Assembly (NCBI GenBank): GCA_951812955.1
Contig: OX638340.1
Span: forward strand, 1,088,001-1,152,000
From: an uncultured Gemmatimonadota bacterium
Lineage (GTDB): Bacteria; JAAXHH01
DNA length: 64,000 nt
Direction of reading: 5' to 3'
Positions within the stretch are counted from its first letter, which is position 1; each line of letters opens with the position of its first letter. The notes under the pieces were generated by a model. That model was not told the DNA's origin and did not search any database. It worked only from the letters and a program-made list of their open reading frames with translations. The position numbers and the translations under genes were made by a program. Below are positions 22,728-62,162 of this stretch, in pieces.

Positions 22728-23558
22728 ATGTCAACCGTCGAAGATCTCGTCAAGCGGATCAGGATCGAGGGGTGGTGCGTTGTGGACGGCGTAATACCTC
22801 CTGACGAAGTGGTAAAGGTCCGCGACAGTTTGATCGCCACGGCGGACGGACGGCCCGATGACCTGGCGAATGGCCGCCACTGCGTTCGAGGAATCATCGC
22901 ATACGACCAGGCGATCGCCCCCTACCTGTCCGACGACCGGATCATGGGCATCAACGAAGCGTTTTTCGGCAAGCACGTGCGCATTTCCATGACGACGGGC
23001 GTAATACTCCACCCCGGTTATCCCCGGACAGACGACCCAGGCGGAGGCCTTCACTCCGACTGGCCCTTCGGACAGGGCTACGACTATCGCATCCCGGCGC
23101 CGTATCCGGACTCCCCGCTGCTGCTGACCAGCCTATGGATGCTCACGCCCTTCACCAGGGAGAACGGCGGTACCGTACTGGTGCCTGGAAGCCACAAGGC
23201 GGGCAACAATCCGACGGGAGACAGCAGCCTGGTGCCGGGAACGACCCATCCATCGGAAATCCAGGCCGTAGGCGAACCGGGAAGCGTGTTGCTCTTCGAC
23301 AGCCGGACCTGGCATATAAACGGACACAACAACAGCGAAGAGACCCGCATGGCCATCATCGCCCGTTACGCGGCGTGGTGGTTCAACCTCAACCCGCTTA
23401 TTCCCGGTCTATCGGACTTCGAACGCGATGCGGCCGACCGGGGCTTCAGGCCTGATGATGTCGTGCCGCTGACTCCGGAGCAGTATGACGCGCTGCCTGA
23501 ACGCACCAGGCCCCTGTTCCACCACATCGTCCTGGGACAGAGAGTCCTTCCGTCCTAG
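22728..23558 (+). CDS. phytanoyl-CoA dioxygenase (PhyH) family Fe(II)/2OG oxygenase
   Basis: HSDWP...H..G iron-binding pattern, 276 aa. Confidence 0.7.
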   Translation: MSTVEDLVKRIRIEGWCVVDGVIPPDEVVKVRDSLIATADGRPDDLANGRHCVRGIIAYDQAIAPYLSDDRIMGINEAFFGKHVRISMTTGVILHPGYPRTDDPGGGLHSDWPFGQGYDYRIPAPYPDSPLLLTSLWMLTPFTRENGGTVLVPGSHKAGNNPTGDSSLVPGTTHPSEIQAVGEPGSVLLFDSRTWHINGHNNSEETRMAIIARYAAWWFNLNPLIPGLSDFERDAADRGFRPDDVVPLTPEQYDALPERTRPLFHHIVLGQRVLPS

Positions 23559-23641: not shown

Positions 23642-23702
23642 TAAAACAGGGAATGTTAAACGCGAAAACAGGGAATGTAAGACGGTAAGGAATGCATGAA
23701 AC
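23642..23702. repeat. 3 tandem degenerate ~21-bp repeats (aaaacagggaatgttaaacgcg) in 5' leader of sulfatase gene
   Basis: read directly. Confidence 0.8.
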
Positions 23703-29803: not shown

Positions 29804-30802
29804 TCACGTCCAGACAACCTCCCGTGCCTCGCCCGCGGGACCGGCCTGCAGGATGGTGTCCGCCACGGCAATGGCCTTGATCGCCTCCGTGCCCGGCGAA
29901 AGGCACGTGACATCGCCACGCACGCACGATAGGAAATGCGCCGCCTGGCAGGCGTACATGTCGGGCTCCGCTTTCGACTTGATCAGCGTCTGCTCGCCTT
30001 CGCGGTTCGTGAAACAGCAGTACTGGTGAGGCTCATCGTCTTCCGGATCTGGCAGGTCACCTGTACCGAACTGAACAAAACCTTTCGGTCCGATAATGTC
30101 GTGCAATCCATTGCCCCGGGCCGCCCAGCTCCATGACATGAGCAACTGGTTTCCGTTCTTGTAGCGGACGATGGCGGAACAGGTGTCCTGGGCGGATGAT
30201 TCGGGGTCCATATCTATCGAACTGGAAAGGACGCTCTCGGGATCTCCGAAAAGGAAATTTGCGAAATCGTAGTTGTGGACGGCGCCGTCCATGAGCGGAC
30301 CGCCTCCGAGGTCGTGGTCCATGTACCAGCTTCCGGGACCGAATCCGGCCATGGCGTTACGCCAGAGGATGGGCGACCCCAGGTCCCCTGATGCGACGCA
30401 GGCGCCCCAGGACTTCCAGTAGGAGTCGAATCGCCGGCAATGGGCGACCATTAGCACGGTGTCCTTCCGTTCCGCAGTCTCGATCATACGCTGGCACTCG
30501 TCCACCGTTCTGGCCATGGGTTTTTCCACCAGTACCGGTATGCCTGCGTTGAGCGCGATCAAGGCCGCGGCACAGTGAAGGCCGGTGGGTACCGCAACGA
30601 CAACCGCGTCGACCTTACCGCTGTTGACGAGCGCTTCGGCCGAATCGAATCCCTCGGTGCCTGGAAAGTTGTCTTCAAATCGCGCACGCATTTCAGGGGA
30701 CGGATCTGCGCAGGCGACCAGGTGGCAACCATCGACCTGATCGAATGTCCGGGCCTGGTGCGTGCCCATGCCGCCGACGCCAATTGAACCCACTCTTATC
30801 AT
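29804..30802 (-). CDS. Gfo/Idh/MocA-family NAD(P)-dependent oxidoreductase
   Basis: MIRVGSIGVGGMGTHQ Rossmann N-terminus, EKPMA motif. Confidence 0.8.
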   Translation of the reverse strand: MIRVGSIGVGGMGTHQARTFDQVDGCHLVACADPSPEMRARFEDNFPGTEGFDSAEALVNSGKVDAVVVAVPTGLHCAAALIALNAGIPVLVEKPMARTVDECQRMIETAERKDTVLMVAHCRRFDSYWKSWGACVASGDLGSPILWRNAMAGFGPGSWYMDHDLGGGPLMDGAVHNYDFANFLFGDPESVLSSSIDMDPESSAQDTCSAIVRYKNGNQLLMSWSWAARGNGLHDIIGPKGFVQFGTGDLPDPEDDEPHQYCCFTNREGEQTLIKSKAEPDMYACQAAHFLSCVRGDVTCLSPGTEAIKAIAVADTILQAGPAGEAREVVWT

Positions 30803-31884: not shown

Positions 31885-33015
31885 TCACTGCCACAAAATA
31901 TCCCCATCATCCATCTGCGAAGCAAGAAACTCCTCGTTCAATTCAACGCCCAGACCCGGTGCTTCCGTCATCACCACGTGTCCGTCCTGGATCACCGACT
32001 CGTCCGTCGCTAGCACGTCTTTCCATGTAGGATCGTCGAAACGGTGGTATTCCAGTGCCAGGAAGTTCGGGACACTCGCGCAGACGTGGGCGTCCCCGAC
32101 CGTGCTCAACGCGCTGGAGTTGTTGTGCGGAGCGAATGGCACGTAATACATCTCGGCCATGTTGGCGATCTTTCGGCATTCCGACAGGCCGCCGCATTTC
32201 GAGATGTCCGGCATGATGATATCGGCGGCCTGCTGCTGCAGCAGGTCGCGGAAGCCATGGCGAAGATAGAGGTTTTCGCCGACGCAGATGGGCGTCCCCG
32301 TGGCCTGCGTGATCTTGGCCAGGGCGTCGATGTTCTCGGGGGGAACCGGCTCTTCAAGCCACAGGAGATTCAGCGGTTCGAGTTCCTGGGCCATTTTCAT
32401 CCCCGCGCTGGCGTCATACCTGCCATGCAAGTCGATGGCAAGATCAAGAGACGGTCCGATGCCCTCGCGGATCGCATACGCTTCATCCACCAGGGACTTG
32501 AGTTCATCGGGCGTCACCGACCAGTTCCACGGATCCAGCTTGTGTGGGTTATCCGCGTCGTCCAGATCGAACTTGATCGCCGTGAAACCCTGTTCCCGCA
32601 CCTCCGCGGCACGTTCGTTGTAGTCGGCGTGGGCACTGTCCACGTATAGACGAACCCGGTCACGGAACTTGCCGCCCAGAAGCCGGTAGACGGGGACGCC
32701 CTGGGCCTTCCCCGCCAGGTCCCACAGGGCAACCTCGATGCCTGTGAGCGCGGAGATCGAAGCGCCGCCCGCACCGCCCATGAAGATGTACCTTCGACGG
32801 ATGTACTCGAAACAGGCATCCACGTCCCTCGGGTCCATGCCGATAATCATCTTCGCCATGTGCCGGGTCGACTCCCGCCAGCCGCCGTCGACGTGACTGG
32901 CTTCCCCCGTGCCGTATACCCCCTCGTCCGTGTATACGCGAACGTAATGGTACCGGTAGGTGGTATTCCCTGATTTAACCGGGACGTCAGCAGTTTTTAT
33001 TTCGGTGATCTTCAT
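31885..33015 (-). CDS. enolase-superfamily dehydratase (D-galactonate dehydratase-like)
   Basis: MKITEIKTADVPV... LLWLEEP, 376 aa. Confidence 0.8.
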   Translation of the reverse strand: MKITEIKTADVPVKSGNTTYRYHYVRVYTDEGVYGTGEASHVDGGWRESTRHMAKMIIGMDPRDVDACFEYIRRRYIFMGGAGGASISALTGIEVALWDLAGKAQGVPVYRLLGGKFRDRVRLYVDSAHADYNERAAEVREQGFTAIKFDLDDADNPHKLDPWNWSVTPDELKSLVDEAYAIREGIGPSLDLAIDLHGRYDASAGMKMAQELEPLNLLWLEEPVPPENIDALAKITQATGTPICVGENLYLRHGFRDLLQQQAADIIMPDISKCGGLSECRKIANMAEMYYVPFAPHNNSSALSTVGDAHVCASVPNFLALEYHRFDDPTWKDVLATDESVIQDGHVVMTEAPGLGVELNEEFLASQMDDGDILWQ

Positions 33016-40786: not shown

Positions 40787-41491
40787 TCACGACTCCGGAT
40801 CGACGATCGATTTGTCCTGGGGATGATAGTCGATCGCTCGTCGGCCGTGGTCCAGGTCGTACATCCGCCCGGTACTGTCGGACACGCCGAATACGACCTC
40901 GAATCGAATGCCGGGGTGGATGACCGCCCGTTCGAACACCCGGACCGCGTCGCCGTGACTCAGGTGATGGGGATGTCCCGGCAGGTCCCGCTGTTTCTGG
41001 AAATTGCCTATGCGCACGCACACGACCTCCATGTCGGACCGCACCGCGTACATGTAACCCAGGCTTTCCCCGAAAACCTTGCTGATGGAATAGTAGCTTT
41101 CCGGCCTCGGAGTCATGTCGATCGTGCGGAAGACGTCCTGCGGATACGGCGCCAGGAGGCCCGCGCGGCTCGCGAAAGCAACCCGGCGCACACCGTTGCG
41201 GCTCGCCGCTTCGAAAAGCGTGTAGGTACCGATGAAGTTGGCATGCAGGATTTCGTCCCACGACGCGCCGCCCGATGGGTTGCCGGCCAGGTGGATCACT
41301 GCGTCCATGCCTTCCGTGGCCTGCATGACCGCGTCCATGTCGGTGATGTCGCCCACGACTTCGTCTTCCAGTCCCGTGGTCGGCACCCGGTCGAAACCGC
41401 GGAGGGGATATCTATCCTTAAGTCCGTTAACGATGATCGAGCCGATGACGCCGGCCGATCCGGTGACGAGTATACGAGGTGTTTCGTTCAT
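40787..41491 (-). CDS. NAD-dependent epimerase/dehydratase family protein (short, 234 aa)
   Basis: ILVTGSAGVIGS Rossmann motif, YSISK catalytic YxxxK. Confidence 0.7.
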   Translation of the reverse strand: MNETPRILVTGSAGVIGSIIVNGLKDRYPLRGFDRVPTTGLEDEVVGDITDMDAVMQATEGMDAVIHLAGNPSGGASWDEILHANFIGTYTLFEAASRNGVRRVAFASRAGLLAPYPQDVFRTIDMTPRPESYYSISKVFGESLGYMYAVRSDMEVVCVRIGNFQKQRDLPGHPHHLSHGDAVRVFERAVIHPGIRFEVVFGVSDSTGRMYDLDHGRRAIDYHPQDKSIVDPES

Positions 41492-42714
41492 TCCGACTCC
41501 TTGCGCATGAATGGTCCGTGCCGTTCAATCCAGTCGTAGGTCTCCTGCCACGGCGCGCTGCCGTCCTCTTCCCAGATCTCCAGCCTTACGCCGCGAATAT
41601 TGCCCTCGGGAAACCCGGTCAGGCGGCTGACCGAAGGATAGCCAATGGTATGGTATACGTTGCCGCTCGGTAGCATCAACTTTCCGATATGACGTGGAAT
41701 CTCGGTCTTCGGGTTCCCCGCGATACGCACCAGTTCCGCCTCGTCCACTTCCACACCCAGTCCGGGTCCTTCCGGCACCGGTGAGCTTCCGTCAGCCACC
41801 TCGATCCGGCCGCCGGTGACGTCCTCGCCGTACTGGTCGTCCAGGTTGACCGTGTGCATCACATTGGGGATCACCGCGCCGAGGTGGAGCGCCATGGCTT
41901 TGCTAAGCGTCCCCCCGGTCAGCTGGATCACGGTGGACACATTCGCCTCGGCACAGGCGAAGCCCCGTTTCAGACTCATGCCGATACCGTGCTCGCCGAC
42001 CATGTAGGCGTCGGCGCATCCGAGCGTGATCTCCGGTCCGCCGCCGAGTTGCGGTACGTGCATGAGCAGGGGGATCGTCGTCTTTTCCCGCAGGCGGCGC
42101 CATCCGTCCACGTCGCGCCAGACCAGGGGATCTTCGATCACGCCGACGACAGGAGACTTCTCCAGGTGTTCGACTATTCTCGCCACGTCGGCGCCCGACC
42201 GGTTGTGGTTGAAATCGTAGTGCATCTTGAATCCGGGAGGCGCGACCTCCTCCACCGCGCGGTTGTGCTCGTAGACATCGAAGAACGCGCATGTGTGCAT
42301 CTTGAACGCCATGTACCCCTCGTCCGCCGCGCGCACGACCTCGGCGGCCAGGTCTTCGGGAGATGTCGAGCGTGTCCACGCCGCGACCGGCACCCGGTCG
42401 CGAACCTTCTGACCCATGAGCTTGTAGGCCGGTATTTCGAGGTGTTTCCCCATGAGATCGTACAGGGCGCCCATGAGCGCTACCGGTAGTTTGGCGTTTA
42501 TGTGGTCGAAGGGATGGCTGCCGGTCAACCGGTCCACTTCCCTGATGTCCATCGTCACATGTCCCCGGCTTTCGCCGTAACCCACCACGCCGTTGTCCGC
42601 GGTCACCTTGAATACCGTCTGCGTATCGATTCCATTGAACAGGACCTTACGGCCCTCGTTGCGGTCGGCCAACCTGGGATTGATGTGTGTAATCGCGATA
42701 TCGGTGATTTTCAT
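41488..42714 (-). CDS. enolase-superfamily (MR/MLE) protein
   Basis: MKITDIAITHINP..., GVIEDP motif; start ATG 42714 (upstream part of caller's 580-aa ORF is non-coding extension); 4-nt overlap with downstream epimerase. Confidence 0.75.
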   Translation of the reverse strand: MKITDIAITHINPRLADRNEGRKVLFNGIDTQTVFKVTADNGVVGYGESRGHVTMDIREVDRLTGSHPFDHINAKLPVALMGALYDLMGKHLEIPAYKLMGQKVRDRVPVAAWTRSTSPEDLAAEVVRAADEGYMAFKMHTCAFFDVYEHNRAVEEVAPPGFKMHYDFNHNRSGADVARIVEHLEKSPVVGVIEDPLVWRDVDGWRRLREKTTIPLLMHVPQLGGGPEITLGCADAYMVGEHGIGMSLKRGFACAEANVSTVIQLTGGTLSKAMALHLGAVIPNVMHTVNLDDQYGEDVTGGRIEVADGSSPVPEGPGLGVEVDEAELVRIAGNPKTEIPRHIGKLMLPSGNVYHTIGYPSVSRLTGFPEGNIRGVRLEIWEEDGSAPWQETYDWIERHGPFMRKESE

Positions 42715-42752
42715 GGCCTGTCTCGTTTCCTTCCTGTTCTGCCGGGCATTTC

Positions 42753-43625
42753 CTATGAGTTCGCCAGCGACTTCGGCGTCCCCGCCTGATTCACCCCGTC
42801 CCGCACGGTGAGGGCGATCGGCCAGTTCTGCCCGCCCCGCTTTACGTACTCGTCCTCCGCACCGCATAGCCAGGTGAACATCTGTGCGGCGGCGAGCGCG
42901 CCCTGGAACTGTTCGAATACGCCGGCCGGGGGATTGAAGTCGATCGTATTGAAATCGATATCGTCCTGTTTTACCCAGTCCCGCACGGGCGGCGTGGTCC
43001 GCCAGTAGTTGTATTTGAGCAGGTTGCGATAGGCGCTCCTGCCCCGGGGGCCCGAGGTGGCTCGCGACCGGCGGTGCCAGATGCCGTAGACCGTAAGGAA
43101 GATCGTCCCCGCCGGGGCGGCCGTAGAAACCGTGCCGCGGATGGAACCCAGGTGGGCCATCATGGGCGCCTTGTTGCGCATGAAGTGCGAACCGGGCAGC
43201 ACGACGGTCGGCCCCATGTCCCCGGTGCATTCCTCCGGATAATAGAATACCTGAAGATACTCCAGCGCCGGGGTATAGATCGTACCGCCATCCCGGTGCC
43301 AGTTCTGCGGCTTGTCATATGGCAGCGGCCCCCGGTGATTGCTGATGATGAGCGGCAGCGTGAAATCGCGCCCCAGGAGCGACCGGACGGCGCCAGCCGC
43401 CTCCGGGTTCATGAGCACGCCGTCTACGAAGAACGACTCGCCCACGATTGGCGTGGGTTCGTAAGTGCTGTCACTGCGTTCCAGATAATCGACGACCTGT
43501 TCGTTGATCTCTTTAGGAACGACTTCCGGCAGCATCAGGAAGCCGTTGCGGCAGAAATCGACCACTTCGCGGTCCGTCATGGTCGCAGCGCAATCCATTT
43601 TCTTGCCGTAGGGCACCTTTGCCAT
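42753..43625 (-). CDS. phytanoyl-CoA dioxygenase (PhyH) family Fe(II)/2OG oxygenase
   Basis: HRDGG...H pattern; start at MAKVPYG (ATG 43625). Confidence 0.7.
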   Translation of the reverse strand: MAKVPYGKKMDCAATMTDREVVDFCRNGFLMLPEVVPKEINEQVVDYLERSDSTYEPTPIVGESFFVDGVLMNPEAAGAVRSLLGRDFTLPLIISNHRGPLPYDKPQNWHRDGGTIYTPALEYLQVFYYPEECTGDMGPTVVLPGSHFMRNKAPMMAHLGSIRGTVSTAAPAGTIFLTVYGIWHRRSRATSGPRGRSAYRNLLKYNYWRTTPPVRDWVKQDDIDFNTIDFNPPAGVFEQFQGALAAAQMFTWLCGAEDEYVKRGGQNWPIALTVRDGVNQAGTPKSLANS

Positions 43626-47864: not shown

Positions 47865-48048
47865 TACAGCCGCTTACGGGATGCTTGGAGTAACGGATCC
47901 GGCGCCCCGCCCCGTATTCGATCCACGCGTTTCCAGGCAGCGGCAACCACCGTTGAAATGACCGGATTTTGGTTGCCAGTACAAGGCGAATCGTCGTATA
48001 TTAACACGGGTTTAGGAGGTGAGTGCCCGGAGCACACGGTGCACTGTT

Positions 48049-48885
48049 ATGTTAGAGTTCACTGCACCACGAAATACCCGGGGAACCTTGTTGGACATTG
48101 ATATCGCAGCCTACAGCGCGCGCATCGGCGTCGACGGACCATTGCCGCCGACGGCGGCAACGCTGCGCCGCCTGCACTATGCACATATGCTGGCCGTGCC
48201 CTTCGAGAACCTTGACATCCATTGGGGCCGCCCGATTGTGCTGGAGGAAAGGCGTCTATTCGAGAAGCTCGTGACGCAGCGCCGCGGCGGATTCTGTTAT
48301 GAGCATAATGGCCTGTTTGCAGCGGTACTGCGCGAACTCGGCTTTGCGGTCGACCTGCTGGAGGCGCGCGTGGGCGCGAAAGGCTGGGACGACGGCCTCC
48401 CCTGGGACCACCTGACGCTGCTGGTCGCACTGAAGGAACGCTGGCTGGTGGACGTGGGCTTTGGCGACGGATTCCGCGAGCCGCTGTTACTTGACGATGC
48501 GGTGCCACAGACGCGCGCGGAGGGCATCTGGCGTGTGCAACACGACGGCTGCGAGGGCCGGCATTCAAGCCGCACGCCGGCAGGTGACTGGAAACCCGAG
48601 TATCGCTTTCGGCTGCGGCCATGTCAGCTGGCGGACTTCAAGCCCGGTTGCGATTATCATCAGAACTCGACGGAGTCTCATTTTACGCAGCAGCGCATGT
48701 GTTCGCTTGCCACGAAGACGGGGCGTATTACGCTGAGCGACCGGCGCCTGATCGTGACGGAGGGGTTTTCGTCACGGGCCACCGCCAGCGACAATTCGGG
48801 AGACGCCAGGCGCCAGGAACGGGATTTTGCGGATGAAGCGGAGTTTCAGCAGGTGTTGCGGGAGCGCTTCGGGATCGTACCCTGA
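48049..48885 (+). CDS. arylamine N-acetyltransferase (NAT)
   Basis: FENLDIH, RGGFCYEHNGLF (catalytic Cys) motifs. Confidence 0.75.
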   Translation: MLEFTAPRNTRGTLLDIDIAAYSARIGVDGPLPPTAATLRRLHYAHMLAVPFENLDIHWGRPIVLEERRLFEKLVTQRRGGFCYEHNGLFAAVLRELGFAVDLLEARVGAKGWDDGLPWDHLTLLVALKERWLVDVGFGDGFREPLLLDDAVPQTRAEGIWRVQHDGCEGRHSSRTPAGDWKPEYRFRLRPCQLADFKPGCDYHQNSTESHFTQQRMCSLATKTGRITLSDRRLIVTEGFSSRATASDNSGDARRQERDFADEAEFQQVLRERFGIVP

Positions 48886-49579: not shown

Positions 49580-50287
49580 ATGAACAGGACGGCGGCCTAC
49601 ACGGTCCAGCGTGGCATACCCGTCTCGCAACTGGGCGTCGACGCGAGAGGGGCGTTTATCACGCGAACCTACACCCATCTTCTCGGGGCGATCCTGGCAT
49701 TCGCCCTGATTGAGATCTACCTGTTTCAGACCGGCATGGCGGAGTCGATCGCCCGCGTGCTGCTCAGCGGGTCCTGGCTCATCGTACTGGGCGGTTTCAT
49801 GATCCTGAGCTGGATTGCGACCCATCTCGCGCACAATGCGCAGACCAAGGGGGGTCAATACGGCGCGTTGGGGCTGTTCGTCGTGGGCGAAGCCATTATC
49901 TTCACGCCGCTGCTCTACCTTGCGGATTCCATGGCGCCCGGCGTGATCAACAGCGCCGCCACGGTTACGCTCATCGGGTTTCTCGGGCTGACGATCGTGG
50001 CCTTTCATACCCGCAAGGACTTTTCCTTCCTCGGCGGGCTGCTGCGGTGGGGGTTCATCTGCGCCCTCGTGCTGATCGTAGCCAGCGTGCTATTCGGATT
50101 TCATCTGGGAACGATCTTCACCGTGGCCATGATCGTACTGGCGGGCGGCGCGATCCTCTACGACACGTCGAACGTCCTGCATCACTATCCCGAAGACCGG
50201 CACGTGGGCGCGGCGCTTCAACTCTTCGCCTCCGTGGCGCTGTTGTTCTGGTACGTCCTGCAGTTCTTTCTGTCGTCGAGAGACTGA
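49580..50287 (+). CDS. Bax inhibitor-1/YccA family membrane protein
   Basis: 7 [19 protein letters not shown]-terminal signature. Confidence 0.75.
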
Positions 50288-50334
50288 AACATCTCGACGG
50301 GGCGCGTCAGTTAACCAATCGGAGAGGTACCGTT

Positions 50335-51042
50335 ATGTTCAACCGAAAGAGTCTACACGCTGCGGTGTCCATCGGCCTGATGGCCCTGGTGCCGTCGCTG
50401 TTCACACTGGCCTGCGAGGGACCGGTTGGACCGACTGGACCGGCAGGAGCTCAGGGTCCGGCTGGACCGCAAGGCGCTGCCGGATCACAGGGACCGGTGG
50501 GCACGGACGGAAGTACTGGACTACAGGGGCCGGAAGGACCGCCTGGACCGCCTGGACCGCCTGGCGAGGTAAGAGTCATCGATCTGGACCTGGTCGGTTC
50601 GTGGCGATTCGAGAGCACGGATATCGTGCAGACCCTTGCGGAGAATCTCAAGGACTACCTGATCAACGAAGCCGGCCTCGATGCGGCTACCGTGGAACTC
50701 TTACTCGCCGAGTTCTTCAGGGAGATGACGGAGGATCTCAAGAACTCGCCGATTGCGACGGTTAACCTCGCCGCGGACGCCACCTTCCTGGACGGTGACG
50801 GCGCCTCGGGGACCTGGTCGGCCAACGGTTCGACGCTGCTTGTGAAACAGGACGAGACCGTTTTTTTCCTGGGAAGCTATCGCGTGGATGGCGACGATCT
50901 GACGCTGACGCTTTCCAAGGCCCAGATGCTGCAAATGATCACCAGCGCGTCGGAGGAACCACTCGCCGAAGACGAAATCATGCTGCTTGATATCCTGTTC
51001 GGCGAAAACGGTACGGCCAACTACTTCTTCAAGCGGGTTTGA
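50335..51042 (+). CDS. lipoprotein: collagen-like (Gly-X-Y)18 tract + lipocalin-like C-terminal domain
   Basis: lipobox LFTLAC then [19 protein letters not shown]...; GGAGAGG SD before ATG 50335; C-domain paralogous to 54296..54832. Confidence 0.65.
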
Positions 51043-54027: not shown

Positions 54028-54295
54028 GGATCGGTCTCCTGGTTTTCTTTAGTAGTGGTCAGCGGTCAATGCTGTACGATTCGAATTTTGGAATATATGA
54101 CGCGGGCGGCCCCGTGTAAAGGATCATACGAGGCGACGTGTGTTGCGTGCAGGGCGGCACAAGGCCAACACGGGTGGGCGGTGCCGTTCCAACACGGGCG
54201 GGCGGCGAAAATTCTAAGTGCTGGTGAGCGACGCAGTCCCCATGGATTTCAAGGAAAGCGCCAGGTTTGCGGTGGCCTGCTGAACTAAAAGCTAC

Positions 54296-54832
54296 TTACC
54301 TCGAAAAATACATGATCATGACCTCTATGTCCTTCAGCATGATCCTCAACAGTTCCGCTTCCTCTTCGTCCTCCGCATCAAGACCCACGGTTGCCAGTAG
54401 CGAGGCTACTGCAAATTGCAGGGAAAGCGTAGTATCCGTAACGGTGTATCCCACGGAAAAAGTCTCACCATCTGAAGTCGTGACGGTTATTCGATTCCCA
54501 GACACCTGGTATCGGTCAGGCTGTTCGCCGTCGACAATCACCGTTCCGTCAGACCTGAAATCAAGGGTAAGGGCGAACGTCACGTTGGATTCTCCAAGCA
54601 TGTCAGATACCACCATGTCGGCCTGGCTCGCAGTCAGGCCCTCCCCGATCAGGTACTCCCGCAGGTTGGCGGCCAGTTTGGTATCGAAATCGTTTCCCGT
54701 ATATTTCCACGTGCCGATCAGCTTCTCTGCAGGGTCCGGGTCCGGTTCCGGTGTGGGAGTCGGGGCCATCGGATTATCGTCATCTCCGCAGGCTAGCGCC
54801 ACCAGGACGGTCATCATAAGTAGAATCCGCAT
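54296..54832 (-). CDS. lipoprotein with Pro/Asp-rich linker + lipocalin-like domain (paralogue of 50335..51042 C-terminus)
   Basis: lipobox LVALACGDD, PTPTPEPDPDP linker, LIGTWKY...ANLREYLIGEGL aligns with LVGSWRF...[13 protein letters not shown]. Confidence 0.6.
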   Translation of the reverse strand: MRILLMMTVLVALACGDDDNPMAPTPTPEPDPDPAEKLIGTWKYTGNDFDTKLAANLREYLIGEGLTASQADMVVSDMLGESNVTFALTLDFRSDGTVIVDGEQPDRYQVSGNRITVTTSDGETFSVGYTVTDTTLSLQFAVASLLATVGLDAEDEEEAELLRIMLKDIEVMIMYFSR

Positions 54833-54937
54833 ATCATGCCTCCTGCCGAGTAGGCTCGGCTATACGTGTCTTCAAGAATGGATCGGAGATGTTAACGGTG
54901 AGCTCTCCGTTTCGTCTATCAATACTTCGCTTGTGGT

Positions 54938-55162
54938 TCAAATAGATACCCTGATCGTGATGGTCTCCCTTATTGTCTCGTCGTACAGCAGGCTTTTTAT
55001 TCTGCCCTTCACCACATATCGCCCCAAATCGTTGAAACCGTGATTGAGTGACAACAGGGCCAACTTGTTGTGCTGGGCCGTTGCGACTACTCTTTGGGTT
55101 GGTTCACCAGTTGTCTGAACGATGGGGTTACTTTCCGAACAGGACGCAATCGCGAACAACAT
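54938..55162 (-). CDS. possible small lipoprotein in AT-richer region (weak)
   Basis: MLFAIASCSE lipobox-like start; lower GC than surroundings; no SD. Confidence 0.25.
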   Translation of the reverse strand: MLFAIASCSESNPIVQTTGEPTQRVVATAQHNKLALLSLNHGFNDLGRYVVKGRIKSLLYDETIRETITIRVSI

Positions 55163-55747
55163 TGTAATCAGTAGGATAGACTGGAATGCACGCAAGTACA
55201 ATATACACACCCTTTCTGAAGAAGTTAGGGGCACCATTTGACCCAATGCCTATGGTACCTGCCAGTGTTGTACGCTCGCGCTATAATTCGGTGAGTGTTA
55301 TACGATTCACCGGGGGTTGGGATCTAACTCGAAGCCCTAAAAATCGGCCACTGAATTGAGCAAACTACCCCGACCAATGTAGCACGAACAATCGACAATA
55401 GCGAGTGTCATGGTTTCAAATTGAAAATATGATCTATATTTGATTTTCCAACTGAAAACCAACTTGAAAATATAAACATCGGCTTCCAAGCTGATATTTT
55501 ATGATCAAAAAGTGATTTTTATAGTATTTAATGTGACTAAATCGCATACAACCGGATGGGTCGCCTGTGCCCTTACTTGAGGATACAAAGTCGCACAGAA
55601 GTCGGTGAAGCGGGACTCGTGGCATTTTCGGGCTATTCATCGGATATTGACAGGGACAATCCGCGGATGTACCCTGAATCGACCGCCGGTCCGGCACGGC
55701 CCGGCTCTTTCGCGGAAGAACCGCGGGAACCGTTCTCGGAAGAAACC

Positions 55748-56272
55748 ATGAAATCGCAGGGCTTCTGGCTTACCTTCGCAGGCCTCCTACTGGTGTGCGT
55801 AGCATCGGACGCGGTTGCGGTGCGAATATCGGCCCACCCGTTCTACATCAGCGTCTGCCAGGTCGATCACAACCCCGATTCCGACGCGCTGGAGCTGGCT
55901 TTTCGCATCTTTACGGACGACCTGGAACAGGCCCTCGAGGCGATGGGAACGGACCGGCTGCGCCTGGGGACGGAGCGCGAAGCCGAGAAAGCCGATCTTT
56001 ACATCGGCCGTTATCTCGCGCGCCACGTCGAAATCGAAATTAACGACCAACGCGTCAGCGCCGTCTTTCTTGGAAAGGAAGTGGATACGGACGCAATCTG
56101 GTGTTATCTGGAGGTTGAGAATATCCCGCTCTTAAACACGATGACCATGACGAACACCCTGCTCCTTGAAACTTTTGAAGACCAGGTCAATCTCGTGCAC
56201 GTCAACGCCAACGGTCAGAAGATGAGCCTGGTGTTCAACGGACAGCACGTCAAGCAGACGCTGGACTTCTGA
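55748..56272 (+). CDS. hypothetical secreted protein (174 aa)
   Basis: signal peptide MKSQGFWLTFAGLLLVCVASDAVA; no recognised motif. Confidence 0.55.
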   Translation: MKSQGFWLTFAGLLLVCVASDAVAVRISAHPFYISVCQVDHNPDSDALELAFRIFTDDLEQALEAMGTDRLRLGTEREAEKADLYIGRYLARHVEIEINDQRVSAVFLGKEVDTDAIWCYLEVENIPLLNTMTMTNTLLLETFEDQVNLVHVNANGQKMSLVFNGQHVKQTLDF

Positions 56273-56317: not shown

Positions 56318-56830
56318 ATGCCCCGAAACACACGAAATGCAGCCCGCATAGTAGACCTGAAGGCGTTTGCGGACTTGAGATCCGGCCTGGGTACCATCGT
56401 CGCCACTTCCGGCGGATATGATCCGCTCCATCCCGGGCACGTCTCCTGCCTGTTGGAATCATCCGCCTATGGCGATACCCTGGTCGTGATCGTCAACGGC
56501 GACGGTTTTCTTCGCCTTAAAAAGGGCAAGCCCTTCATGGATATCACGGCCCGCTGCCAGGTCGTCTCCGGTATTCGAGCCGTGGATTTTGTCATTCCCT
56601 TTGAGGTGGAAGACGACGACACGGTATGCGAGGCCCTGAGGATGATCCGGCCCCACGTGTTCACCAAGGGTGGAGACCGGACCGACATGTCCAATATCCC
56701 CGAGTGGGGGGTGTGTACGGAACTCGGAATCGAAGTGATATCTGGGGTGGGGATGGACAAGGCCTGGAGCAGTTCCGACTACCTGGAATCCTGGGGACGA
56801 TTCTGGGCCGATCGTGCAGGCCGCGGCTAG
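56318..56830 (+). CDS. cytidylyl/adenylyltransferase-like nucleotidyltransferase (RfaE domain II-like)
   Basis: SGGYDPLHPGHV (HxGH nucleotidyltransferase motif) and VFTKGGD. Confidence 0.7.
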   Translation: MPRNTRNAARIVDLKAFADLRSGLGTIVATSGGYDPLHPGHVSCLLESSAYGDTLVVIVNGDGFLRLKKGKPFMDITARCQVVSGIRAVDFVIPFEVEDDDTVCEALRMIRPHVFTKGGDRTDMSNIPEWGVCTELGIEVISGVGMDKAWSSSDYLESWGRFWADRAGRG

Positions 56831-56983
56831 TTAAACAGTGTTGTATTTGTTTCTTGTCCCGCGTCCCTTGCCGTCATAATTTACCGGTACAGGAAATCCA
56901 AACGCCCACGCGACAATCTCGCAGGAAATACACCGTTCAGGACGAGAAACCATCCGGTCTCTCCCGGATGACCCGGAGGAGAA

Positions 56984-58087
56984 ATGTCCAGTAGATACCG
57001 CGCCGCCGTAATCGGTCTCGGCCGCATGGGGAGCACCTTCGACGACGAGATCGATCAGGGCGGGTCCATTTTCCTGCCTTACTGCCACGCACCTTCCTAT
57101 TACGCCGCGCCGGATGTGGACCTGGTCGCGGGAGCGGATCCCCACGACGAACAGCGTTCCATCTTCGGGGTGCGCTGGGGCATCGAAGACGGCCACCTGT
57201 ACACCGACTACCGAGATTTGCTCGAAAAGGAAAAACCCGATCTGCTCAGCGTCTGTACCACCGCCCGGATCCGGTCGCAGATCGTGGAGGACGCCGCCCG
57301 GGCAGGCGTGAAGGCGATCTGGGCCGAAAAGCCCATTGCCCTGACCCTGGCCGAGGCGGACGCCATGGTGAAAACCTGCGATGACCACGGCGTAGCCCTG
57401 GCCTTAAACTGCGCCCGGCGCTGGCATCCATTCTTCTCCCAGGCGCGGACCATGATCGAGGAAGACGAACTCGGCGACATCGTCCAGGTGACGGGCTACG
57501 GCCAGTGCGGACTTTCCCACAACGGCAGCCACCTGATCGATATCGTCCGGTACATGGCGGGCGGAAGGGTGGAATGGGTGTACGGCGAGATGGAATCCGA
57601 CGAGGCTGCGGAGGGCGAAAAGGATCTGATGGGCAACGGATACCTGGCCTTCGAGAACGGAGTCAGGGCCTATGTCCGGGGCATGCCCTGCGGGATCGCG
57701 AACTGGGAAATCGACGTACTGGGCACGAAGGGCCGCTTCCGCTCGATCGCCAACGGCCAGGACGCCGAACTGATCAAACTGCACCCGGGAGGGCCGCGCG
57801 GGCGGGGCGTGCCGGCCCGCATGCCCTTCCCCTGGCCCGCCCATTACCCCGGGATGGGACTGACGATCGTGGCGGACCTGGTTTCGGCTATCGAAAACGG
57901 TCATCAGCCCAAGTGTTCCGGGGTTGACGGGCGCGAGGCGCTGGAAGTGGCCGTCGCCCTCCGCGAATCGCACCGCGGCGGCGGGCGGAAGATCCATCTG
58001 CCCCTGGAGGACCGCGGCCTGGGTATACTGTCTTCCGAGATTCACGGGGACGACATCCCGGCCAGAGTCCGGCGCCTCCAAAGTTGA
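56984..58087 (+). CDS. Gfo/Idh/MocA-family oxidoreductase
   Basis: AAVIGLGRMGS Rossmann motif, EKPIA motif. Confidence 0.8.
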   Translation: MSSRYRAAVIGLGRMGSTFDDEIDQGGSIFLPYCHAPSYYAAPDVDLVAGADPHDEQRSIFGVRWGIEDGHLYTDYRDLLEKEKPDLLSVCTTARIRSQIVEDAARAGVKAIWAEKPIALTLAEADAMVKTCDDHGVALALNCARRWHPFFSQARTMIEEDELGDIVQVTGYGQCGLSHNGSHLIDIVRYMAGGRVEWVYGEMESDEAAEGEKDLMGNGYLAFENGVRAYVRGMPCGIANWEIDVLGTKGRFRSIANGQDAELIKLHPGGPRGRGVPARMPFPWPAHYPGMGLTIVADLVSAIENGHQPKCSGVDGREALEVAVALRESHRGGGRKIHLPLEDRGLGILSSEIHGDDIPARVRRLQS

Positions 58088-58128
58088 CGTCCGCACGAAT
58101 GACGTCCGCACAAATGAAGTCCACTAAG
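58084..58128. repeat. 3 tandem degenerate 15-bp repeats (tgacgtccgcacgaa) overlapping Gfo stop
   Basis: read directly. Confidence 0.8.
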
Positions 58129-58160
58129 TTGCGGTCCCCAGGATTGTATAGGGAGATGGC

Positions 58161-58925
58161 ATGAAGCTCGGGTTCGTAACCTACCAGATCGGCAAAGACT
58201 GGGATGTGCCGACCATCATCGACATGTGCGGCCGAACGGGTTTCACCGGAGTCGAACTCCGCACGACCCACGCCCACGGCGTGGAAGCATCGCTCAGTCC
58301 AGGTGAACGCGGCGAGGTCAGGCGGCTGTTCGAGGACGGCGGCGTGGATCTCGTGGGACTCGGAACGGCCTTTGAGTACCACTCGGTCGATCCCGACGAG
58401 GTCCAGGCGAATATTAAAGGAACTGTGGAGTATGCCAGACTGGCGGCCGACCTGGGCTGTCCAGGTATCAAGGTGCGGCCTAACGGTCTGCAGACGGAAG
58501 CGGGCATACCGGAAGAAGCGACTCTCGAACAGATCGGAATGGCCATCGGGCAGTGCGCGGAAGCGGCCGGCGGTCTCGGCGTGCAAATCCGGGTCGAGGT
58601 ACACGGGAAGGACACCCAGGAGCCGCGCCGGATGCGCGCCATTATGGATCATGCGGACCATCCCAATGCGTATATCTGCTGGAATTCCAATTTCGGCGAA
58701 GTGGTGGAAGGATCGATCGAGAGCAACTACCGGCTGCTGAGTCACAAGATCGGCCTGGTGCATATCACCGAAATCTACCGCGCCGAGTATCCCTGGCGGG
58801 AACTGTTCAGGCTGCTCAAGGCCGACGGTTACGAAGGTTACACGCTCGCGGAAATCGCGCACAGCCCCGAACCCGAACGGCTGATGGGCTATTACAAGGC
58901 ACTCTGGGAAGCCTACCAGGTCTGA
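58161..58925 (+). CDS. sugar phosphate isomerase/epimerase (xylose isomerase-like TIM barrel; IolE/MocC-like)
   Basis: 254 aa, GFTGVELRTTHAHG..., conserved Glu/His pattern of AP endonuclease 2/xylose isomerase-like fold. Confidence 0.7.
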   Translation: MKLGFVTYQIGKDWDVPTIIDMCGRTGFTGVELRTTHAHGVEASLSPGERGEVRRLFEDGGVDLVGLGTAFEYHSVDPDEVQANIKGTVEYARLAADLGCPGIKVRPNGLQTEAGIPEEATLEQIGMAIGQCAEAAGGLGVQIRVEVHGKDTQEPRRMRAIMDHADHPNAYICWNSNFGEVVEGSIESNYRLLSHKIGLVHITEIYRAEYPWRELFRLLKADGYEGYTLAEIAHSPEPERLMGYYKALWEAYQV

Positions 58926-58938
58926 GCGCGCACCGCGC

Positions 58939-59054
58939 GACATTAAGCGACATCCGGCGCGGCATTATGCGCGTATCCGGCGCGGCATCAAGCGCGTATC
59001 TGGTACGACATTAAGCGCGTATCCGGCGCGGCATTTATCGACATTAAATCGAAC
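58939..59054. repeat. complex interleaved direct repeats (atccggcgcggcat x3; acattaagcg x2-3; gcgcgtatc x3)
   Basis: read directly. Confidence 0.75.
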
Positions 59055-59097
59055 CGCCGATTATCTGCATGGGCAATCTGAAAGGATCGATTGATTT

Positions 59098-60435
59098 ATG
59101 ACCACGACGGCGGCAACCTCGCAGGAGGCCATTTACCGGGAACGGACGCCGGGTTCCTACGAAGCGTTCAAACGCTCCCGTGAAGTCATGCCCGGCGTCG
59201 CAAAGGGCGCATACTTCTACGCCCCTTATCCCGTCACCATCGAACGGGCCGAGGGATGCTATCTGATTGACGTGGACGGGAACCGGTACGTGGACTTCGC
59301 CAACCACCATACCACCCAGATCCTTGGACACAACCATCCGGCCATAATCCGGGCGGTGGAACGGCAGATCGAACGGGGCATCGCCGTAGCCGCACCCATG
59401 GGAAGTGAAACGGCCCTCGCCGAGGAACTGTGCCGGCGGGTCGAATCCCTGGACAAGGTCCGATTCTGCAATTCGGGGACCGAAGCCACGCTGCACGCCA
59501 TCCGGCTGGCTCGGGAATACACGGGACGGCACCTCATCGCCAAGTTCGAGGGCGGGTACCACGGCAGTCACGACGCCGTCGAAATCAGCGTCGCACCAGA
59601 CCCGGCGAAGGCCGGTCCCCGGGAGCGGCCGGTACCGGTGCGGGGTGCAGGTGGCATGCCGCCCAACACCACCGAGAACGTCATTATCCTCCCCCAGGAT
59701 GACGAAGCCGCCGTGGAGACCCTCATCGAGGAACACCGGGACGAACTGGCGGCCGTGATTTTCGATCCCCGGACCGGTGTCATTCCCCAGCGACCCGCAT
59801 TCATCCGAGCGGTGCGGGAAATCACGCGCAGGCACGGCGTTCTGCTCATCTTCGATGAAATCGTGGGTTTTCGCGCATCGCCGGGCGGCGTCCAGGCGCA
59901 GTGCGGCATTCTGCCCGACCTGACCGCCTATGGCAAGATCGTGGGCGGCGGCTTTCCCGTGGGCGCCTTCGGCGGTCGGAAGGACCTGATGGATGTGCTG
60001 GATCCGACCCTGGGCAGACCGAGGCTGTCGCAAAGCGGATCTTTCAGCGGGCATCCGGTGGCCATGGCCGCCGGTCTTGCCATGCTTGAAGTGCTGACTC
60101 CCGACGTTTATGACCGTCTGGACCAACTGACCGAGCGCCTGATGGACGGTTTCCGGAATGTATTCGAACGGACCGGAACTGTGGCAACAGCTGTCGCATC
60201 AGGTTCCACCTTCAGTATTTACTTCACGGAGGGCCCGGTCAGGGTCTATCGGGCCGCCGCCGCGGCGGATAAGCGTCCCGTATCCGCGGTTTTTCTCGGC
60301 CTGCTCAACCGCGGTTACTATCTGTCGAACGGCCTGGCCATGAACTGTCTTTCGGCGGCCATGGACGAATCGCATATCGATGGCCTTGTTGCGGCCCTGG
60401 CCGAGACTTTGGCCGAGGCCCTGGAAGAAAACTGA
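59098..60435 (+). CDS. class III aminotransferase (glutamate-1-semialdehyde aminomutase-like)
   Basis: YGKIVGGGFPVGAFGGR matches GSA-aminomutase PLP-lysine region; AAGGA SD. Confidence 0.8.
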   Translation: MTTTAATSQEAIYRERTPGSYEAFKRSREVMPGVAKGAYFYAPYPVTIERAEGCYLIDVDGNRYVDFANHHTTQILGHNHPAIIRAVERQIERGIAVAAPMGSETALAEELCRRVESLDKVRFCNSGTEATLHAIRLAREYTGRHLIAKFEGGYHGSHDAVEISVAPDPAKAGPRERPVPVRGAGGMPPNTTENVIILPQDDEAAVETLIEEHRDELAAVIFDPRTGVIPQRPAFIRAVREITRRHGVLLIFDEIVGFRASPGGVQAQCGILPDLTAYGKIVGGGFPVGAFGGRKDLMDVLDPTLGRPRLSQSGSFSGHPVAMAAGLAMLEVLTPDVYDRLDQLTERLMDGFRNVFERTGTVATAVASGSTFSIYFTEGPVRVYRAAAAADKRPVSAVFLGLLNRGYYLSNGLAMNCLSAAMDESHIDGLVAALAETLAEALEEN

Positions 60436-60500
60436 CGTCCTTGGCCGGGATTCGCCGGCCGGTCTTTGTCCATTCGAACCACCCATACAGGAACGGAACC

Positions 60501-62162
60501 ATGTCTCAATCATTCAAGTGGGCTGTCATCGTAATCGGCGCAATGGCCGGCTTCTACCTGATCCCCCTGTTGATTTCGGCGCAGGGCGGCAGATCCGAGG
60601 AGTCGGCCGCCCGTCCCCTGCCCCCGGACGCCTCGCCGCGTGATCAGCAGGTCTTCAGGTTCATGAGCCCGGAACCCCGCACGCTCGACTCCGCCATAAA
60701 CGATTATGACACCGAAGACACCATCATCCCCTTCGAACCTCTGCTCCGGCGCGATCCGAACTGGAATCCGGAACCCGCTGCCGCCGACCGTTACGAATCT
60801 TCGCCGGACGGCAAAACGTGGACCTTCCATCTCCGGGAAGGCGCGAGATGGAGCGACGGCCGTCCCGTCACGGCCCATGACTTTGTATACTCATTTCGCC
60901 GCATGCTGGACCCGCAGGAGGCCAATCCCTACGGGTTCTTCTACCACGATTTCAAAAACGGACGCGCCATCAACCGCGGTGAAATCAAGGACCTGACCCA
61001 ACTGGGCGTCCGAGCGGCCGACGATCTCACCCTTGTCATCGAGACGGAGAAATCGGCCCCCTACCTGCCATACATCGTATCCTACGGGAACGCGCTGCCC
61101 GTGCCCCCGTGGCAGGTGGAAAAATACGATCGCAAGTGGACCCGGCTGGAGAACATCGTCTCGAATTCAGGGTTCAAACTGTCGGAGTGGATCACGGGCA
61201 GCCACATGACCCTGGTCCCGGACCCCATGTACAACGGTCCCCACAAGCCCTACCTGGAGAAGGTCATCCATCCCTTCCGCAACGCGGCGGTGGCCACGGT
61301 CCTCGCCTACGAGAACAACGAAGTGGACCGTGAACTCGTCGACGTGACCGACATGCCCCGCATCATGGCCGATCCCGAACTCGCGCCGGACCTGGTCAAG
61401 GTGGCCGCGAGGGCATCATGGTATCTCTTCTACCGCACGCGCCAGCCGCCCTTCGACGACGTACGGGTCCGGGAAGCCTTCACCCGGGCGATCGACCGGG
61501 AGGTCATCACAAATATCCTGCTGGGTGGAACGGCCGTACCCGCCTATTCCATGATTCCGCCCGAATTCGCCGAATACAACGGACCGGCCATGAAGGACTA
61601 CCAGTCCTATGACCCGGCAAAGGGCAGGGAGCTGATTCGGGAGGCCGGCTATCCCCGCGGGAGGGGATTCCCCCGACAGGAAATGTGGCTTCGGGCGCCC
61701 AATCCCACCATCAAGCGGATCAGCGAGGCAATCATGGCCATGTTGAAGGAGAACATCGGGGTCGATGTCACCATACGTGCCGCAGACCGCACCATGTATA
61801 TGAACAACATGTACAACTGGCGCATGAACCTGGGGCTGATCGTGTTCTACGCCGATTACCTCGACCCGCGCAACATGCTCGACATGATCTGGCACTCGCA
61901 GCCGCAGGGCTACGGCAGGTCGGACTGGACCAACGCCGAATTCGACCGGATGGTGGAACGGGCGGCCTCTGAACTGGATAGGGAGAAGCGACGCGCGCTT
62001 TACGCGGAGGCGGAGGAAATCATGGTTTCCGACTACGCCGGTTCCTTTCTGTTCCACCCGGTGAACCTTGAACTCAGGAAACCCTGGGTGAAAGGGATTA
62101 CGGAAAACCCGGACGGCACGGTCGGCGCAATGGACTATACGAGGGTCTACATCTCCCGGTAA
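60501..62162 (+). CDS. ABC transporter substrate-binding protein, family 5 (third copy, orphan)
   Basis: signal anchor MSQSFKWAVIVIGAMAGFYLIPLLISAQG, family-5 SBP features. Confidence 0.8.
   Translation: MSQSFKWAVIVIGAMAGFYLIPLLISAQGGRSEESAARPLPPDASPRDQQVFRFMSPEPRTLDSAINDYDTEDTIIPFEPLLRRDPNWNPEPAAADRYESSPDGKTWTFHLREGARWSDGRPVTAHDFVYSFRRMLDPQEANPYGFFYHDFKNGRAINRGEIKDLTQLGVRAADDLTLVIETEKSAPYLPYIVSYGNALPVPPWQVEKYDRKWTRLENIVSNSGFKLSEWITGSHMTLVPDPMYNGPHKPYLEKVIHPFRNAAVATVLAYENNEVDRELVDVTDMPRIMADPELAPDLVKVAARASWYLFYRTRQPPFDDVRVREAFTRAIDREVITNILLGGTAVPAYSMIPPEFAEYNGPAMKDYQSYDPAKGRELIREAGYPRGRGFPRQEMWLRAPNPTIKRISEAIMAMLKENIGVDVTIRAADRTMYMNNMYNWRMNLGLIVFYADYLDPRNMLDMIWHSQPQGYGRSDWTNAEFDRMVERAASELDREKRRALYAEAEEIMVSDYAGSFLFHPVNLELRKPWVKGITENPDGTVGAMDYTRVYISR

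Follow-up and report, generated by a model that had tools for sequence, protein, structure and literature searches.

The window analysed here is a stretch of 64,000 nucleotides from an uncultured Gemmatimonadota bacterium (contig OX638340.1 of assembly GCA_951812955.1, positions 1,088,001 to 1,152,000). It carries a run of co-directional genes, three of which are the main subject of this text: those for an oxidoreductase (Gfo1), a TIM-barrel protein (TIM) and an aminotransferase (AT). The triad is preceded by a gene for a nucleotidyltransferase-like protein (NT) and followed by one for a family-5 solute-binding protein (SBP5). The initial annotation, made from the letters alone, had taken these five co-directional genes to suggest aminocyclitol or aminosugar metabolism. 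All five open reading frames (ORFs) are found on the + strand at the positions given there, and the domains assigned to them there are correct by Pfam (E-values 1e-8 to 6e-81). Here, domains were judged by Pfam and curated-family identity by NCBIfam cut-offs. The coordinates are collected in Table 1.

Table 1. Features of the locus and of related loci. Positions are those of the window unless another locus is named; aa, amino acids; PLP, pyridoxal phosphate.
Feature	Position	Strand	Basis
DUF6702 gene, sixth co-directional gene, just 5' of NT	~55748-56272	+	gene calls in relatives
NT, small HxGH cytidylyl/adenylyl-transferase-like protein, 170 aa	56318..56830	+	Pfam PF01467
Promoter-like element 5' of Gfo1: TATTTGTTnCTTGTCCCGCGTCC, then a CATAAT/TATAAT-like hexamer	56844..56882	+	NT-Gfo1 spacer alignment, six relatives
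Gfo1, NAD-type Gfo/Idh/MocA oxidoreductase, 367 aa, first gene of the triad	56984..58087	+	Pfam PF01408, PF02894, PF22725
TIM, xylose-isomerase-like (AP_endonuc_2) TIM barrel, 254 aa	58161..58925	+	Pfam PF01261
23-bp tandem repeat GCGCGGCATTAAGCGCGTATCCG, 4.4 copies, filling the TIM-AT spacer	58935..59035	.	Tandem Repeats Finder score 132
AT, class-III (fold-type I) PLP aminotransferase, 445 aa, 'AKGAY / NHH' family	59098..60435	+	Pfam PF00202
GC-rich hairpin with T-rich tail, lying behind the AT stop and ahead of the likely SBP5 start	60441..60462	+	terminator-like scan
SBP5, family-5 (OppA-like) solute-binding protein with N-terminal membrane anchor	60501..62162	+	Pfam PF00496
Second Gfo (336-354 aa) and NosD/beta-helix protein (409-421 aa)	L101 854-3129; L176 5117-7469; Latescibacteria JGI contig	divergent from Gfo1	
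Lipoprotein gene, 178 aa, 76% identical to its L004 counterpart	54296-54832	-	
AT-rich divergent spacer	54833-55550		

The five proteins are kept in identical order, with 69-98% identity, in ten related contigs, and thus the ORFs are real genes and not chance ORFs. Their guanine-plus-cytosine (GC) content at third codon positions is 0.71-0.81. The intergenic gaps from NT to SBP5 are fairly long (153, 73, 172 and ~65 bp). The mechanical ORF of SBP5 starts at TTG 60441 and runs to 62162 (573 aa). The most likely start is ATG 60501, since the gene calls in relatives are 552-553 aa long. The closest database matches are metagenome-assembled genomes labelled Gemmatimonadetes or Gemmatimonadota, such as 'APA_bin_41', in which AT is 97% identical.

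To follow the gene order outside these contigs, the window proteins were compared by tblastn with 177 fetched loci. For the count of linkage, a locus had to extend 900 bp or more downstream of Gfo1, and the loci were binned by the identity of their Gfo1 to that of the window. At 75% identity or more, TIM and AT lie directly downstream of Gfo1 in all 11 loci, whose GC content ranges from 0.40 to 0.61. The full block, M1 peptidase-DUF6702-NT-Gfo1-TIM-AT-SBP5-TPR, occurs in one clade only, which spans the same GC range. Gfo1-TIM-AT also occurs with wholly different flanks in L006, L097 and L102 (GC ~0.50) and in L176 and L177 (GC 0.56). In L006, the gaps within the triad are 48-64 bp. A Zixibacteria contig carries a Gfo1-AT pair separated by 7 bp, and a Latescibacteria contig carries a Gfo1-TIM pair followed by an MR_MLE (enolase-superfamily) gene. 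Gfo1-TIM-AT is thus a real module that recurs across lineages and is confined to a subclade of each of the three families. The plasmid collection held no Gfo1 relative above 31% identity and no AT relative above 44%.

The genes around the module differ between clades. Where the triad occurs outside the window's clade, two genes are transcribed divergently from Gfo1, one for a second Gfo protein and one for a NosD/right-handed beta-helix protein. The window's clade has neither; DUF6702 and NT stand there instead. One of these outside loci also carries GH127, Amidohydro_2, a glutamine-synthetase-like gene and CN_hydrolase. In 12 loci where members of the AT family occur elsewhere, the neighbours include Amidohydro_2 (6/12), other Gfo genes (5/12), SDR (3/12) and DegT (3/12). 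Genes for SBP_5, the MlrC peptidase, PALP and RidA are further neighbours of AT orthologues. These neighbours point to carbohydrate or acid-sugar and nitrogen-compound metabolism, not to tetrapyrroles or cell-wall synthesis. The neighbourhood of TIM orthologues is uninformative (Na_sulph_symp and thiamine pyrophosphate-enzyme genes). A survey of neighbours in 72 metagenome loci with Gfo1 orthologues revealed no dominant partner; the commonest is a polytopic membrane protein of ~680 aa (9 loci), and the housekeeping genes purD and purE are also seen. In L006, a fused HemD-fragment/HemE gene (11408-12940, - strand; URO-D, 412.8 bits) is convergent with AT. This tetrapyrrole neighbour is judged to be coincidental.

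Judged by its sequence and its structure model, Gfo1 is a generic member of the Gfo/Idh/MocA superfamily. All three of its Pfam domains score above their cut-offs, with E = 1.4e-16 for the N-terminal and E = 2.3e-12 for the C-terminal GFO_IDH_MocA domain. Invariant residues include G11-x-G13-x-x-G16, D52 and E115-K116-P117. When aligned to 3ezy, the catalytic D-x-x-x-H motif is replaced by H179-x-x-x-H183, and H179 is invariant. All NCBIfam equivalogs stay far below their cut-offs. The IolG model TIGR04380 reaches 83.2 bits against a cut-off of 355 and covers residues 34-171 only, and the model of uridine diphosphate N-acetylglucosamine (UDP-GlcNAc) 3-dehydrogenase reaches 81.8 against 450. 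The profile search is led by the inositol dehydrogenases 3ezy, 3cea, 4n54 and 4hkt (E = 1e-23 to 1e-15). The structure model, with a predicted local distance difference test score (pLDDT) of 88.8, matches Gfo/Idh/MocA structures in Foldseek with E = 1e-25 to 1e-21. However, this search gave no discriminating nearest neighbour: aldose, glucoside, inositol, UDP-sugar and dihydrodiol dehydrogenases are all found at 15-22% identity. Since the equivalogs are below cut-off and the structural neighbours are spread in this way, no substrate can be read from Gfo1. The gene had been labelled as MocA/IolG. Its low IolG score and the exchange of the catalytic Asp for His argue against this label, and IolG (myo-inositol 2-dehydrogenase) was rejected as its identity, although K116 is kept.

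The TIM barrel is predicted to be a metal-dependent epimerase or isomerase that acts next to a carbonyl group. It matches PF01261 (AP_endonuc_2) with E = 2e-19. It matches no NCBIfam family at E <= 0.001, and a single-sequence search of the PDB was also empty. The structure model (pLDDT 93.5) is nearest to D-tagatose, D-psicose and L-ribulose 3-epimerases, DgpBC, Art22, YcjR and UlaE, with TM-scores of 0.73-0.84 at 13-18% identity. When the family profile is searched against the PDB, only D-tagatose 3-epimerase (E = 3e-4) and IolI (E = 0.009) are found. In the profile alignment, E146, N175, H201 and E231, which are invariant in the family, fall on four columns of D-tagatose 3-epimerase, which we take to be the metal-binding and catalytic residues E152, D185, H211 and E246. 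Of this Glu-Asp-His-Glu set, E146, H201 and E231 are kept and Asn175 replaces the Asp. An additional cluster, H37/H39/E42/H74, is also invariant in the family. IolE is not among the top 50 Foldseek hits. The 'IolE/MocC type' label given initially therefore had to be dropped: with no curated match, ketose 3-epimerases, DgpBC and YcjR as the nearest structures and IolI at just E = 0.009, an inosose dehydratase of that type was rejected.

AT is a class-III aminotransferase (PF00202, 192.6 bits against a cut-off of 30.5, E = 1.2e-56). Its Schiff-base lysine is K280 in the segment YGKIV, which aligns with the GK motif of HemL and of StoTA. K36, H70, H71 and K280 are invariant among 36 members of the family. 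HemL models rank first for AT in NCBIfam, yet the scores are below the cut-offs (TIGR00713, 356.9 against 527.3; NF000818, 369.7 against 398). When 84 relatives are aligned, three classes can be told apart by their motifs. The true HemL class has PGGVxSPVRAF (with the substrate Arg), SWGP, TGFR and QFEAGF; the StoTA-like class has PGGxTR...P-YP, NNYT and IT-FR; the window's own class, with at least 52% identity, has PG(G/V)-AKGAY.Y.P-YP, DFANHHT and EIVG-FR. At the four HemL segments, the AT of the window reads PGV-AKGAYFYAP-YP, NHHT, EIVG-FR and GLA-MNCLS. All four HemL motifs are present in every cyanobacterial or archaeal HemL-type sequence of the same alignment. AT is 35-41% identical to sequences with HemL motifs and 34-44% identical to StoTA-type sequences in the loci examined. 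By both the cut-offs and the motif classes, AT does not group firmly with true HemL, a grouping that the initial annotation had named as evidence against itself. HemL was rejected as its identity because AT scores below both curated cut-offs and is without SPVRAF, SWGP, TGFR and QFEAGF.

The best PDB match of AT is 6K8H (350.7 bits), which aligns end to end. This structure is StoTA, an omega-transaminase of Sphaerobacter thermophilus for beta- and gamma-amino acids (PMC10589169). In StoTA, R36 has been proposed to bind the carboxylate, and N70 lies near the phosphate of PLP (PMC10589169). K36 of AT aligns with this Arg and H70 with N70, with NHH in place of NNY, and both residues are invariant in the family. 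An exact-sequence look-up of AT returned nothing on record. From these patterns, AT appears to belong to a distinct 'AKGAY / NHH' family within class III.

NT and SBP5 are treated here as lineage-specific neighbours and not as core parts of the module. NT matches CTP_transf_like (E = 1.1e-8) and has an HPGH motif at residues 38-41. It is below the curated cut-offs both for the RfaE domain II / HldC heptose-1-phosphate adenylyltransferases (TIGR02199, its top NCBIfam model; 78.6 against 181.5) and for TagD (41.5 against 165.4). Its best PDB match is 5x9q, a 'putative cytidylyltransferase' (E = 8.5e-13). Among the loci examined, the window's clade and L101 (65% identity, GC 0.46) are the only places where NT adjoins the module. 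SBP5 matches SBP_bac_5 (E = 6.4e-81) and scores 233.8 bits against the OppA cut-off of 947. At 83-98% identity, it is conserved only within the window's clade, and its link to the triad is one of within-clade synteny only. No permease gene adjoins it: the next gene encodes a TPR protein on the other strand, and the permeases of the window are found only at 5020-7414. In the initial annotation, both proteins were counted with the pathway, and NT was taken to suggest activation of a sugar phosphate. Outside the window's clade, most triad loci are without them, and in the case of NT a promoter-like block also separates the gene from Gfo1, which speaks against their membership.

The promoter-like block upstream of Gfo1 is probably the triad's own promoter or operator. 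In six relatives, the TATTTGTTnCTTGTCCCGCGTCC block is nearly invariant, with one variable base, while the remaining spacer between NT and Gfo1 has diverged. In L004 and L008, the block reads TTGTCC, 17 nt and TATAAT. A consensus promoter scan gave no flag at this element in the window itself, and its promoter function is for this reason only inferred. An RBS-like (ribosome-binding-site-like) GGAGGA lies ahead of the Gfo1 ATG. The hairpin behind AT is weak evidence for a terminator, since the region has fewer terminator-like sites (4) than shuffled sequence (8.0 +/- 2.9). The 23-bp array between TIM and AT varies among close relatives: L004 and L095 do not have it, and in the window, L001 and L096 it is expanded. 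A shorter repeat unit of 15 bp, TGACGTCCGCACAAA, is present in 2.5 tandem copies at 58085-58122, beginning at the Gfo1 stop codon. An Rfam scan of the long spacers for a riboswitch found none and gave just a tRNA elsewhere in the window.

The genes present, their families, their conserved adjacency and the residue patterns of their active sites are observed. We tentatively read them as a Gfo1-TIM-AT cassette for the interconversion of hydroxyl, keto and amino groups on a substrate that is carbohydrate-like and possibly anionic. Our confidence in this reading stays somewhat below even, because no member of the three families has been characterised and because the linkage is limited to a subclade. 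As to reaction order, substrate class and direction, we infer the following scheme. The three genes would be transcribed together, probably from their own promoter. With NAD(H), Gfo1 would oxidise a C-OH group to C=O or catalyse the reverse reaction. Using two catalytic Glu residues and a metal, TIM would epimerise or isomerise the position adjoining that carbonyl, as ketose 3-epimerases and YcjR do. AT would then exchange the carbonyl for an amino group. The substrate may carry an anionic group, as in an amino-sugar acid or a related amino-polyol, given the invariant K36 at the Arg site of StoTA and the lactonase-like amidohydrolase, enolase-superfamily and other sugar-dehydrogenase genes that adjoin members of the wider family. 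The direction is likely to be catabolic, that is, salvage from amine to keto to hydroxy compound with release of nitrogen, since biosynthetic partners such as glycosyltransferases were not found in the neighbourhood. Taken together, the locus looks like a plausible but unproven catabolic cassette of familiar enzyme superfamilies, and it is not demonstrably an inositol or rhizopine pathway. The general logic of the initial annotation, a dehydrogenase followed by transamination, remains plausible given the adjacency of the triad at GC 0.40-0.61 and the pairs in Zixibacteria and Latescibacteria. Together with the domain calls, it is the part of that interpretation that stands; the IolE/MocC and MocA/IolG labels, the keto-sugar transaminase grouping and the membership of NT and SBP5 do not.

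Several observations weigh against the cassette. None of the three families has a characterised member. Beyond one subclade of Gfo1, the families are usually unlinked. Where Gfo1 is 65-75% identical to that of the window, none of 26 loci has TIM and two have AT (a single contig counted twice). At 50-65% identity, one locus in 28 has TIM and none has AT. TIM orthologues at 65-70% identity stand alone, and AT orthologues at 53-60% identity occupy other contexts. Long spacers, of 73 and 172 bp, divide the window's triad, and the longer one contains the repeat array. With the catalytic Asp of Gfo1 replaced by His, even its redox chemistry is assumed from its homologues. Beta- and gamma-amino acids, not sugars, are what the closest characterised relative of AT uses. 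To our knowledge, the known inosose and nucleoside diphosphate (NDP)-keto-sugar transaminases are supplied by the DegT/StsC-type family; MosB and StsC are both of the DegT family. AT is of another kind, as Pfam finds only PF00202 in it and the DegT/StsC domain PF01041 is absent. With this absence and with a closest characterised relative that acts on beta- and gamma-amino acids, the initial grouping of AT with inosose and keto-sugar transaminases could not be maintained.

An unlikely, but not negligible, alternative takes this relative at face value. AT would be an omega-transaminase whose substrates are non-sugar beta- or gamma-amino acids, or amines set free from imported peptides, and it would receive them through the M1 peptidase and the Opp-type binding protein. 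Gfo1 and TIM would be unrelated neighbours or would only tidy up the carbonyl product. StoTA is the best characterised match of AT, and K36 occupies the position of its proposed carboxylate-binding Arg. SBP5 lies directly 3' of AT, three SBP5 paralogues and an Opp/Dpp-type transporter are present in the window, and the SBP_5, MlrC, PALP and RidA genes beside AT orthologues elsewhere fit the same idea. However, Gfo1-AT and Gfo1-TIM-AT recur in lineages without SBP5 and the M1 peptidase, and neighbours of carbohydrate type (beta-helix, GH127 and second Gfo genes) lie near the triad elsewhere. The AKGAY/NHH motif is also unlike the TR/NNYT of the StoTA type.

It is improbable that the genes share no pathway at all, each being independent and held in place by inherited synteny of the clade, with AT at the extreme being the HemL of the cell. 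Most members of each family are indeed unlinked to the others, the whole block from the M1 peptidase to the TPR gene is syntenic in a Gemmatimonadota clade, and AT is convergent with the HemE-HemD gene in L006. Yet the triad is kept where all flanks differ and where GC differs by up to 20 points, linked pairs occur in Zixibacteria and Latescibacteria, and the curated cut-offs and four signature motifs reject the HemL identity.

Slightly less probable still is the synthesis or breakdown of an aminocyclitol, similar to scyllo-inosamine or rhizopine, with Gfo1 as an inositol dehydrogenase, TIM as a barrel enzyme acting on an inosose and AT as the transaminase for inosose. Inositol dehydrogenases lead the profile matches of Gfo1, TIM has its weak match to IolI, an inosose isomerase, and there is a chemical precedent, in which IolG and the aminotransferase MosB together yield scyllo-inosamine (PMC6668481). 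Against these stand the IolG score and the changed catalytic Asp of Gfo1, the lack of an IolE signal for TIM, the class of AT and the absence of other iol or moc genes from the locus. The conserved cationic K36 suggests an anionic substrate, and inosamines are not anionic. The most doubtful alternative is biosynthesis of a nucleotide-activated 3-amino sugar, in which NT would activate a sugar-1-phosphate, Gfo1 would oxidise C3 like WlbA and RifL, TIM would epimerise the keto intermediate and AT would aminate it: NT does lie beside the module in the window's clade and in L101, and Gfo1 weakly matches UDP-GlcNAc 3-dehydrogenase and has WlbA among its structural neighbours, but NT is missing from most triad loci elsewhere, is set apart from Gfo1 by the conserved promoter-like block and scores below the cut-offs of RfaE-II and of TagD, the surroundings hold no genes for a glycosyltransferase, a flippase or polysaccharides, and NDP-sugar transaminases are DegT-type, which AT is not.

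The genes elsewhere in the window are in keeping with a heterotroph that is marine or sponge-associated. This view draws on the TauD, PhyH, Gfo and two MR_MLE genes, the sulfatase, a sodium:solute symporter that is also present, and a collagen-repeat protein. A dense set of scavenging genes at 10-687, 23696-25159, 22728-23558, 29804-30802, 31885-33015 and 41488-43230 encodes a TauD-family dioxygenase, a sulfatase, PhyH, a second Gfo/Idh/MocA protein and two MR_MLE proteins. The sulfatase carries the C-terminal domain of N-sulphoglucosamine sulphohydrolase (SGSH_C). Heterotrophs that live on the glycans of hosts or algae typically have such a gene set. The collagen triple-helix repeat protein is encoded at ~50350-51042 (mechanical ORF 50047-51042, +), between Bax1-inhibitor-like and signal peptidase genes. 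It is conserved in relatives (229 aa in L001), and its repeats are eukaryote-like in what is likely a sponge symbiont. A complete Opp/Dpp-type ATP-binding cassette transporter lies at 2972-12355 on the - strand, with two ATPases, two permeases and an SBP5 at 7491-9395. A zinc-type alcohol dehydrogenase is encoded in the same stretch, as is a second SBP5 (10664-12355), which is 46% identical to the one beside the triad.

An arylamine N-acetyltransferase (PF00797, E = 7e-65; 48019-48885) lies beside a family-III CoA-transferase and an arginase-family gene. At 15806-19798, the longest ORFs, of 687 and 443 aa on the + strand, overlap - strand ORFs and have no Pfam match; both third-position GC (0.62-0.63) and regional GC (0.55-0.59) are lower there. 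The low-GC stretch at 54.0-55.5 kb (0.52) was considered as an insertion. This was rejected, as it consists of the conserved lipoprotein gene and the AT-rich divergent spacer. The longer + strand ORF at 54267-55043 is probably spurious.

If the triad does process a compound of amino-sugar type, a first function would be given to three large families that are now labelled only 'predicted dehydrogenase', 'sugar phosphate isomerase/epimerase' and 'HemL / aspartate aminotransferase family'. It would also correct a widespread mis-annotation of such aminotransferases as HemL and reveal a route by which uncultured heterotrophs of sponges and the sea scavenge nitrogen and carbon. A wider proposal is that Gfo1-TIM-AT is a pathway shared by several phyla (Gemmatimonadota, Zixibacteria, Latescibacteria and others) that are uncultured and for the most part marine or sponge-associated, in which a HemL-like class-III enzyme, not a DegT-type one, handles the nitrogen of amino sugars or amino-sugar acids. 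That enzyme might even be an aminomutase in the style of HemL, with an amino-aldehyde sugar as its substrate. If the proposal is right, amino-sugar metabolism would gain a new enzyme family. We regard this as a speculation that is rather unlikely to hold. The literature yielded nothing specific on this gene combination.

AT shares with StoTA the APYP segment, the 'xx-FR' segment that is one residue shorter than the TGFR of HemL, and a cationic residue 36. It differs from StoTA in having Lys36 instead of Arg, NHH instead of NNY at the cofactor phosphate and the AKGAY loop instead of NTRTT. The AT family also forms a separate group, at 52% identity or above, with a carbohydrate-type genomic context. 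HemL has the same fold and belongs to the same subfamily, with many PDB matches at ~290 bits besides the top NCBIfam models. However, AT has A414 at the position of the Glu of QFEAGF, which is presumably E406 of HemL. TIM resembles D-tagatose and D-psicose 3-epimerases, its top structural matches, in both Glu columns and in the His column. It differs from them in its low identity (15-18%), in the second metal ligand, which is Asn and not Asp, and in the missing His that follows.

Pairs of a Gfo/Idh/MocA dehydrogenase and a xylose-isomerase-like TIM barrel that acts beside the newly formed carbonyl are seen in the E. coli YcjS/YcjR and 3-keto-glycoside systems. YcjS, a glucoside 3-dehydrogenase, pairs with YcjR, a 3-keto-glucoside 4-epimerase. 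YcjR, DgpBC, DgpA and levoglucosan dehydrogenase are among the structural neighbours of the TIM and Gfo1 models (13-22% identity). Unlike the triad, the YcjS/YcjR and DgpA/DgpBC types are without an aminotransferase. The IolG/IdhA and MosB steps and the StrI and StsC steps share with the triad the logic that a Gfo/Idh/MocA dehydrogenase forms a ketone, which a PLP enzyme then aminates. In contrast, AT is a PF00202 and not a DegT/StsC enzyme, Gfo1 has H-x-x-x-H and is below the IolG cut-off, and other inositol genes are absent. A bacterial azasugar cluster of three genes, for an aminotransferase, a phosphatase and a dehydrogenase, makes an amino-polyol from a sugar (PMC8382821). The triad has a TIM barrel instead of the phosphatase, and the likeness would be one of analogy only. 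The three core proteins thus appear to be new, unannotated subfamilies of well-known superfamilies, and the logic proposed for them has precedents in IolG with MosB, in YcjS/YcjR-type pairs and in azasugar clusters.

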